This document shows positions 4,837 to 5,578 of a stretch of 37,979 nt of DNA, in pieces; the stretch's first letter is position 1; the number at the start of each line of letters is the position of its first letter. The translations under genes and the position numbers were made by a program. The DNA is taken from IMG/VR virus record IMGVR_UViG_2850784384_000004; one strand, given 5' to 3'. Below the pieces are notes generated by a model that did not search any database, was not told the DNA's origin, and worked only from the letters and a program-made list of their open reading frames with translations. This stretch comes from a virus (lineage: Duplodnaviria > Heunggongvirae > Uroviricota > Caudoviricetes).

Positions 4837-5460
4837 TTACTCAACGTCAAACGCCCGAATTGAAGCCAAATCATCCAGACCGCTCAGCTCCTCTTTCATT
4901 TCACGCTGACGGCGATAAATCTCATCGTTGCGATCGACCTGCGCCTGCACCATTGCTGCCGCCAGTTCTTCCAGTTCCGGCATCGACAGTTTCACCTGCT
5001 GATTATCGGCATCGCTCCACGCCATATGTGTTTGTGCTGTGACAGATTTTGCCAGCATGACTACCGGGGACAGGCGGCCCAGTGAATCGGGACCAGCATT
5101 CCAGATACGACCGTTCCATTCAAACGTGAACAGCTTCGCCTCCTGTTCTGCGCGCCATGCTTCAATTTCCTGACGTCTGGCCTCTCTGGCCGCTTCCAGC
5201 ATTTCTGGTGTCACAGTGAATGGGGCTATCTCACCCCATTTGCCGCTTTGCAGTTCCTACCAGATTTGCTGACCCGTCGGAGCGACATCATCAGCGGTGG
5301 CTGTGTAGGGGACTGCCTGGTCCCTGTCGTCAAAAAAAACGTCACAGTCTACTGCGCCACTTTCGGTATAACGGGGATTAATGATTTTTTTAATTTCCAC
5401 GGTGCATTCCTCACGATGTGCGAATAAAAAGCCCGGGCATTGCGCCAGAGACATGAGCAT
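4837..5460 (-). pseudogene. phage tail fibre assembly protein (Tfa-like), copy 1, inactivated by nonsense codon
   Basis: Near-identical to 21995..22618 copy; CAG to TAG change at ~5257 splits it into 67- and 125-aa ORFs; divergent C-terminal ~20 aa. Confidence 0.7.
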
Positions 5461-5578
5461 CCGGCACCCCGGACAGGGCGCAATATGACCCCGGTAATGA
5501 ATGCTCTGAACATCCCGTAATGAAAAATTGTGGGGATGCTATATACGTTCCGGTGGGAGTACTGGGCACTGAAATCCC

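Follow-up and report, generated by a model that had tools for sequence, protein, structure and literature searches.

Two near-identical 675-bp blocks flanking sitABCD are very probably right-end relics of two related lambdoid prophages in a chromosome of Shigella flexneri

A segment of 675 bp occurs twice, in direct orientation and with an offset of 17,158 bp, in the virus record IMGVR_UViG_2850784384_000004 (37,979 nucleotides; this whole stretch of DNA is called the window). The two copies enclose the sit operon, which raises the question of where they come from, what keeps them alike and whether they endanger the genes between them. Their extent (Table 1) was determined by pairwise alignment and an ungapped scan, which revealed exactly two mismatches in 675 bases (99.7% identity), the same two differences that a preliminary description of this DNA had counted. 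The ranges given there were 674 (copy 1) and 675 (copy 2) bases long: 22062..22736 is right for copy 2, while the start of copy 1, set at 4905, was one base short of the true start at 4904 (both on the minus strand). The first mismatch, A at 5086 in copy 1 and G at 22244 in copy 2, is synonymous and falls in codon 125 of the gene described below; the second, A at 5259 and G at 22417, changes codon 68 of copy 1 from CAG to TAG, and translation bears out the nonsense change (Gln68) that had been reported. An identity well below 95% or a blurred right breakpoint was looked for in the alignment, but the identity is as given above and the similarity stops at once to the right of 5578/22736, exactly where a sharp edge had been described. 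To the left of 4904/22062 the copies can still be aligned over 67 bases, of which 22 differ, as far as the stop codons at 4837 and 21995; the divergent C-termini that had been read for the two copies, ...LSGLDDLASIRAFDVE and ...LNSLKDLNSVRNFIVE, were both obtained by translation. Judged from the sequences, a match of 675 bp with two mismatches cannot be chance. Self-BLAST of the window identified this pair as its sole long repeat outside insertion sequences, all other long repeats being insertion sequences.

On the minus strand the block comprises the last 168 bp of a side tail-fibre gene and most of a 207-codon gene, which overlaps the tail-fibre gene by 50 bp. The latter had been called tfa, a label which is right by position (a small gene after a tail-fibre gene) and wrong by family. 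Its protein matches Pfam DUF4376 (PF14301) with 57.9 bits (1.6e-15; cut-off 25 bits) and phrog_1141 of PHROG with E = 1.2e-87, whereas the Pfam profile search gave no match above the gathering score to Caudo_TAP (PF02413), the family of lambda Tfa. This search was able to detect the family, since the ORF at 23782-24153, just upstream, is a true Caudo_TAP fragment (PF02413, 78.8 bits). All homologues listed carry PF14301 and are named 'DUF4376 domain-containing protein' or 'prophage tail protein' by PGAP and other sources; the close ones are labelled Shigella by their sources, and a product identical to the copy-2 protein is indexed in 827 blocks of the collection. Among solved structures, neither a sequence search of the PDB (no match below E = 0.05) nor a Foldseek search of the PDB with the AlphaFold model (pLDDT 83; no match at E <= 0.001) returned a relative. 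The same model gave 41 matches at E <= 0.001 in BFVD, many of them named DUF4376 and one named tail assembly chaperone. The gene is a member of the phage DUF4376 family, with a predicted fold common to other phage DUF4376 proteins.

Table 1. Positions of the repeat copies and of the features around them in the window.
Feature	Position	Strand	Remarks
Copy 1 of the block	4904..5578	-	last 168 bp of side tail-fibre gene and DUF4376 codons 1 to about 186
Copy 2 of the block	22062..22736	-	two mismatches to copy 1
DUF4376 gene, copy 1	4837..5460	-	pseudogene in the window; TAG is codon 68 (5257-5259); ipaH-type C-terminal tail
DUF4376 gene, copy 2	21995..22618	-	intact, 207 codons; sit-type C-terminal tail
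Diverged 3' tail of copy-1 DUF4376 gene	4837..4903	-	last 21 sense codons and stop; left mosaic boundary, ipaH-linked
Side tail-fibre remnant, copy 1	5411..5578	-	55 codons and stop; equivalent to 22569-22736
Side tail-fibre gene, copy 2	22569..23758	-	pseudogene; Pfam phage_tail_N on 23381-23758
Truncated ISSfl3 (IS66 family)	5579..6042	-	terminal inverted repeat ends at 6042; first 382 bp of tnpA
Chance ORF, 203 codons	5349..5960	-	TnpA N-terminus (about 127 aa), then third-frame read-through of the block
End fragment (61 bp) of 1256-bp IS3-family element	6043..6103		abuts the ISSfl3 end
ipaH, T3SS E3 ubiquitin ligase effector	2942..4657	+	cargo next to copy 1; Pfam NEL 1e-76, LRR_TTSS
sitABCD, iron/manganese ABC transporter	18345..21794	+	PGAP names in 99.5% identical EIEC locus; Pfam ZnuA, ABC-3
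IS600, left copy	11688..12951	-	direct with 24703-25966; 1264 bp, 99.9% identity
IS600, right of copy 2	24703..25966	-	self-comparison match

The two edges of the block were analyzed separately. To the right, copy 1 had been described as continuing into an IS21-like remnant, a label that goes back to a faint similarity in a helix-turn-helix: the NCBIfam model transpos_IS21 reaches 21.5 bits, far below its cut-off of 160 bits, whereas IS66_access_TnpA reaches 180.4 bits (cut-off 150). The fragment matches an ISSfl3 copy of a plasmid from enteroinvasive E. coli (EIEC), annotated as ISSfl3 / IS66-like TnpA, with 100% identity and ends with ...GGGGCGCTTAC at 6042; the reverse complement of GGGGCGCTTAC starts with GTAAGCG..., as is typical of IS66 ends. 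At 5578|5579 an internal point of the ISSfl3 tnpA is joined bluntly to an internal point of the tail-fibre gene, and a search for microhomology at the join found no shared bases. This is an illegitimate join and not an insertion end. A 32-mer across 5578|5579 is present in S. flexneri SFBU1023, and the identical product of the 203-codon chance ORF that spans the join is indexed in 203 blocks, 35 of them with a carrying contig of more than 1 Mb. Since this exact product recurs so often, the copy-1 junction is evidently old and has become fixed in many chromosomes of S. flexneri. The rest of the first prophage would long ago have been replaced by the truncated ISSfl3 through such an illegitimate, blunt join. 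The short IS3-family fragment beyond the ISSfl3 end matches 13203-13263 and 34977-35037 in inverted orientation with 100% identity.

The left edge is of another kind. The 67-bp tail of the copy-1 gene, which differs from 21995-22061 as stated above, shows 0-1 differences in 67 among all ipaH-linked copies, and the sit-linked copies share another tail type. More generally, DUF4376 genes of E. coli and Shigella are hypervariable over roughly their last 20 codons (26 sequences show at least six tail types), and the position of the left breakpoint varies as well: the loci L039 and L040 diverge from the copy-2 type further into the gene. About 100 bp directly past the copy-2 stop codon recur beyond ipaH, at 2570-2671. 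Where copy 2 has about 64 bp, the ipaH locus thereby holds about 2.2 kb, which comprises most of the sRNA gene CssrB, ipaH, a 59-codon ORF and a gene tail of its own. The complete CssrB sRNA was located with Rfam (151.6 bits) at 2631-2813 on the minus strand, upstream of ipaH. Just after the copy-2 stop, at 21957-22012 (minus strand), there is a weak, sub-gathering CssrB match (30.3 bits, E = 2e-4), which is essentially the 3' hairpin, seven bases replacing the central 131 positions of the model. Because only this hairpin remains past the copy-2 stop, the boundary of the ipaH cassette lies inside the CssrB gene. Position 4904 is a phage mosaic breakpoint inside the last roughly 21 DUF4376 codons, the ipaH cassette having probably brought its own tail. 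Within ipaH, whose homologues are named ipaHa/b/d/e/3 by PGAP, the LRR region contains internal 60-bp periodic repeats of about 70% identity (3227-3510) and is also where ipaH alleles differ.

The origin of both copies becomes apparent from complete prophages in EIEC strains. The copy-2 region 17931-23422 is colinear with and 99.5% identical to the sit prophage end of strain VL40, where a complete lambdoid tail operon (tape measure, L, K, I, J, lom, tail fibre, DUF4376) is preserved and sitABCD lies beyond it in convergent orientation, adjoining uspF/ompN. The copy-1 region 3710-5578 is 99.6% identical (the 675-bp block alone 99.4%) to the ipaHd prophage end of strain VL7S7, an equivalent prophage with ipaHd beyond its end that adjoins yecD/aspS. 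Several tail proteins of the VL40 and VL7S7 prophages have identical accession numbers. In these loci the DUF4376 gene follows and overlaps a PF08400 tail-fibre gene downstream of J and lom, which is the order of a side tail-fibre module. Copy 2 of the window retains this order with J and lom gone, and in copy 1 the tail-fibre gene is reduced to 168 bp. Furthermore, single Shigella chromosomes carry the unit of DUF4376, 59-codon ORF and ipaH at three or more loci each. In deposited phages the nearest modules are those of phiP27 (77%) and Rac-SA53 (80%), at the extreme right end.

Taking these results together, we consider it very likely that the two copies are right-end relics of two related lambdoid prophages in an S. 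flexneri chromosome, homogenised by gene conversion. Both would represent the extreme right ends (the 3' end of the side tail-fibre gene and DUF4376), the first prophage having carried ipaH beyond its right end and the second sitABCD. The likeness of the copies would then have two sources, tail modules that were nearly the same already and gene conversion that kept homogenising the paralogues. Neither copy is likely to have a current phage function. The chromosomal flank at 1-2203 holds yebW (DUF1482) and then a phosphatase gene (Metallophos, likely pphA) that is interrupted by IS600 at 1753, which places the ipaH relic beside the yebW-pphA region. Two inverted isrK and C4 antisense-RNA modules, at 7234-7422 (plus strand) and 26069-26270 (minus strand), suggest that two related prophages have each left an immunity region here; at least the former lies inside an Ash/Rha-type ORF (7183-7815). 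On the right side of copy 2, a sok antitoxin RNA matched by Rfam (CssrC, 118 bits) at 29217-29391 on the minus strand implies a hok/sok-type locus in the prophage remnant there.

The nonsense codon of copy 1 was compared with other assemblies. Position 5259 is G (CAG) in all 12 other assemblies with the copy-1 junction, and TAG was found in this window only. The 67-aa N-terminal product expected from it is not on record in other assemblies, while a 125-aa downstream product has a single record, in assembly L034. This record was considered as confirmation of TAG and rejected: L034 matches the window over 15.2 kb with 99.97% identity but reads CAG at 5259, and its copy-1 DUF4376 gene is disrupted instead by the loss of a single A from the A8 run at 5325-5332. 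TAG could be private to this window sequence or a sequencing error. It has no obvious consequence: copy 1 is without a tail-fibre gene, and in this lineage copy 2 stands behind a frameshifted one. The alignment of the copy-2 tail-fibre gene with the intact 422-codon gene of L013, which also occurs in some S. flexneri genomes, showed that 79 bp have been lost at 23422|23423 between two direct repeats of 12 bp (GCGCAGCAGAGC), a deletion which shifts the frame and splits the gene into ORFs of 125 and 235 codons; the latter matches phrog_2636 with 4e-100.

In order to follow exchange between the copies, the four copy-specific sites of the block, 5086, 5130, 5132 and 5134, were typed in 26 copy-1 and copy-2 sequences. 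Copy 2 has the haplotype G-A-A-C in 16 of 16 sequences and copy 1 has A-G-G-T in nine of the ten other junction-bearing loci typed, while ipaH-type and sit-type outgroups have G-A-G-C. Copy 1 of the window is a mosaic, A-A-A-C: the A at 5086 is still the one derived in copy 1, the derived copy-1 alleles at 5130 and 5134 are gone, and 5132 carries the copy-2-derived A, which results in P110L. The same mosaic was found in the separate assembly L034, and copy 1 of L008 is fully copy-2-like at the four sites. Locus L039 (region 5260-5971 there) has the same ISSfl3 junction, and its flanks, made up of 464 bp of ISSfl3 and the gene tail of 67 bp, show no difference over 531 bases, while its block differs at 34 of 675 positions, mostly in a patch at the window equivalent of 4933-5062; at the protein level the patch resembles another Shigella allele, with which it is partly shared. 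The simplest reading of the haplotypes is two independent conversion tracts from copy 2 to copy 1, one in the window and one in L008, a reading that draws on four sites and that polishing errors in repeats could mimic, though two assemblies agree. Mosaic copy-specific alleles between unchanged flanks thus give moderate support for exchange among the paralogues, and the support is moderate because few sites are informative. Chi sites were absent in and near the block, the single Chi of the window being located at 29623.

With the prophage loci and the haplotypes at hand, other accounts of the pair can be weighed. The preliminary description had spoken of a duplication, which would mean a local event in the sit island that copied about 0.7 kb of the tail-fibre/tfa region to a site 17 kb away. 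The direct orientation, short distance and 99.7% identity of the copies are what such an event would produce. The gene tails of the two copies, however, have diverged and their cargo differs, a full-prophage orthologue of each sits at a different EIEC chromosomal site, further copies stand beside other ipaH genes, and in L039 the copy-1 junction adjoins int/xis and yebY and not the sit region (6 kb examined). Because the intact EIEC modules occupy different chromosomal sites, the copies are two members of a dispersed prophage-end family, the ends of separate related prophages, and we regard a local duplication as very improbable. Slightly less probable still is an assembly artefact, in which one real copy was placed twice or the reads of one copy polished the other. 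Repeats of this size are error-prone, two public draft scaffolds do have false joins here and the TAG is without confirmation in other assemblies, but both copies, with their own flanks and SNPs, were found about 16-17.5 kb apart in three of three chromosome records examined at both loci, both recur in many other chromosomes, and the mosaic haplotype of the window is present in a second assembly (L034).

The remaining account would regard the copies as alternative receptor-binding cassettes of programmed tail-fibre switching, of the Gin/Pin/Cin or shufflon type. Systems of this kind exchange the C-termini of tail fibres along with the chaperone genes, and a resolvase-domain ORF adjoins a related ipaH locus elsewhere (L041). 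Against this, the copies are direct and not inverted, and being nearly identical they would not provide different specificities; at the breakpoint the block is joined to an IS fragment, neither tail-fibre gene is intact, and the gene tables of the orthologous loci list no resolvase-domain (PF00239) product within 10 kb on either side of each copy. An invertible segment of the Gin/Pin/Cin kind was hence not found, and switching has the lowest probability of all the explanations considered. We therefore retain the reading as two prophage right-end relics, and the pair is an ordinary feature of a kind already described, at a locus whose instability has been published.

What remains is the fate of the genes in between. 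The earlier statement that the sit operon lies between the copies holds, sitABCD being convergent with copy 2. The pair consequently has the geometry of a RecA substrate: direct, 675 bp long, two mismatches, with sit enclosed. According to the summary given in a review (PMC7545054), Fisher et al. 2009 (Infect Immun 77:1992) described the sit island as unstable through homologous recombination. In the present locus the 675-bp direct repeats would act as passive RecA substrates, and unequal crossing-over between them would delete or duplicate 17,158 bp including sitABCD. If the exchange fell in the part of the block left of 5259 (355 bp), the resulting hybrid DUF4376 gene would be intact again. 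Loss of the sit island is reportedly RecA-dependent, which together with the conversion footprints speaks for the earlier idea of a deletion substrate and makes it a reasonable one. Since the SNP mosaic indicates that copy 2 converted part of copy 1, the repeats do appear to interact, and deletion of sit through this pair is plausible on the sequence evidence. No recent recombinant between the two copies, neither deletion nor duplication, was found in the neighbourhoods surveyed.

The pair is one substrate among several, because sit is bracketed by four other direct-repeat pairs, all of them insertion sequences, which are longer and equally identical. Besides the two IS600 copies of Table 1 (named after the PGAP IS600 transposase in L003; IS3 family in NCBIfam), these are IS600 at 490/24703, IS2 at 8021/33723 and a 1256-bp IS3-family element at 13196/34970. 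In addition, an inverted IS1 pair (16462-17232 and 27809-28579; 771 bp, 99.9%) brackets sitABCD together with copy 2, and recombination between its members would invert about 10.6 kb. The IS2 starting at 33723 (33723-36308) is interrupted by the 1256-bp IS3-family element (34970-36225) and resumes at 36223, a short overlap that suggests a target duplication in a nested insertion. Another IS3-family element, around 14867-16076, appears to have a split transposase ORF and contains an Rfam ALIL pseudoknot (120 bits) at 15148-15264 on the plus strand, a programmed-frameshift site.

Three public sequences resembled products of recombination at this locus and were rejected. In L025, position 5579 is joined to 23346, and in L026 position 22490 is joined to 23343, as might be expected of a circle or duplication product. 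Both have an 'N' exactly at the join, in L025 the intact ISSfl3 sequence runs on for two bases, and both joins are scaffolding artefacts. These single-N false joins lie in the draft scaffolds UDUP01000136.1 and UDUL01000143.1 (L025:2643-2646, L026:2455) and are a trap when assemblies are mined for rearrangements. Contig L029 combines tail fibre, DUF4376 with the ipaH-type tail and ipaH, as a deletion product would. Its divergence from the window is about 1% on either side, an EIEC ipaH prophage is just as close to it, and it was for this reason assigned to the native ipaH prophage locus of another lineage. A wider role, in which the tail-fibre 3' end and DUF4376 form a portable homology arm throughout the genome that serves as endpoint of high-frequency RecA-dependent sit deletions and as a route for swapping ipaH cassettes with their gene tails from one prophage to another, seems unlikely to us at present; if it were true, the block would be kept near-identical by conversion among all ipaH and sit prophage relics.

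No new mechanism is revealed by this analysis. What it adds are corrected labels (DUF4376 in place of tfa, ISSfl3 in place of IS21), which explain a confusing repeat of the sit and ipaH loci to annotators, the origin of both boundaries, the private stop codon and the SNP evidence for conversion. Since sitABCD has a part in virulence and in growth inside host cells and is known to disappear through homologous recombination, a list of the pairs that bracket it (the 675-bp repeat, IS600, IS2 and the IS3-family element) helps when attenuated or laboratory strains are screened for sit that has been silently lost or amplified.

In comparison with known systems, the modules follow the order of lambda stf-tfa and Rac stfR-tfaR, namely J, lom, a PF08400 tail fibre, a small overlapping gene and cargo at the prophage end. 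The small gene is Tfa (PF02413) in lambda, whereas here it is DUF4376 (PF14301), without a sequence or fold match to a solved structure, and both modules of the window are decayed relics. The position of ipaH and sit corresponds to that of moron cargo in lambdoid prophages, comparable to T3SS effectors. With the exchange of SNPs over short tracts between distinct flanks, the copies resemble cases of concerted evolution in IS copies, rrn operons and prophage paralogues; compared with these, few sites are informative here, and the direction and number of events are deduced from them. The chromosomal ipaH islands of Shigella and EIEC have the same unit of DUF4376, 59-codon ORF and ipaH with the ipaH-type gene tail, but unlike in other islands the tail-fibre gene is cut away by the ISSfl3 join and the DUF4376 gene has a stop codon in the window. 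Finally, the 'PAI sit' of S. flexneri, as outlined in the review summary (PMC7545054), is a locus of the same type, with sitABCD amid phage genes and many IS and with rearrangement and loss ascribed to homologous recombination.
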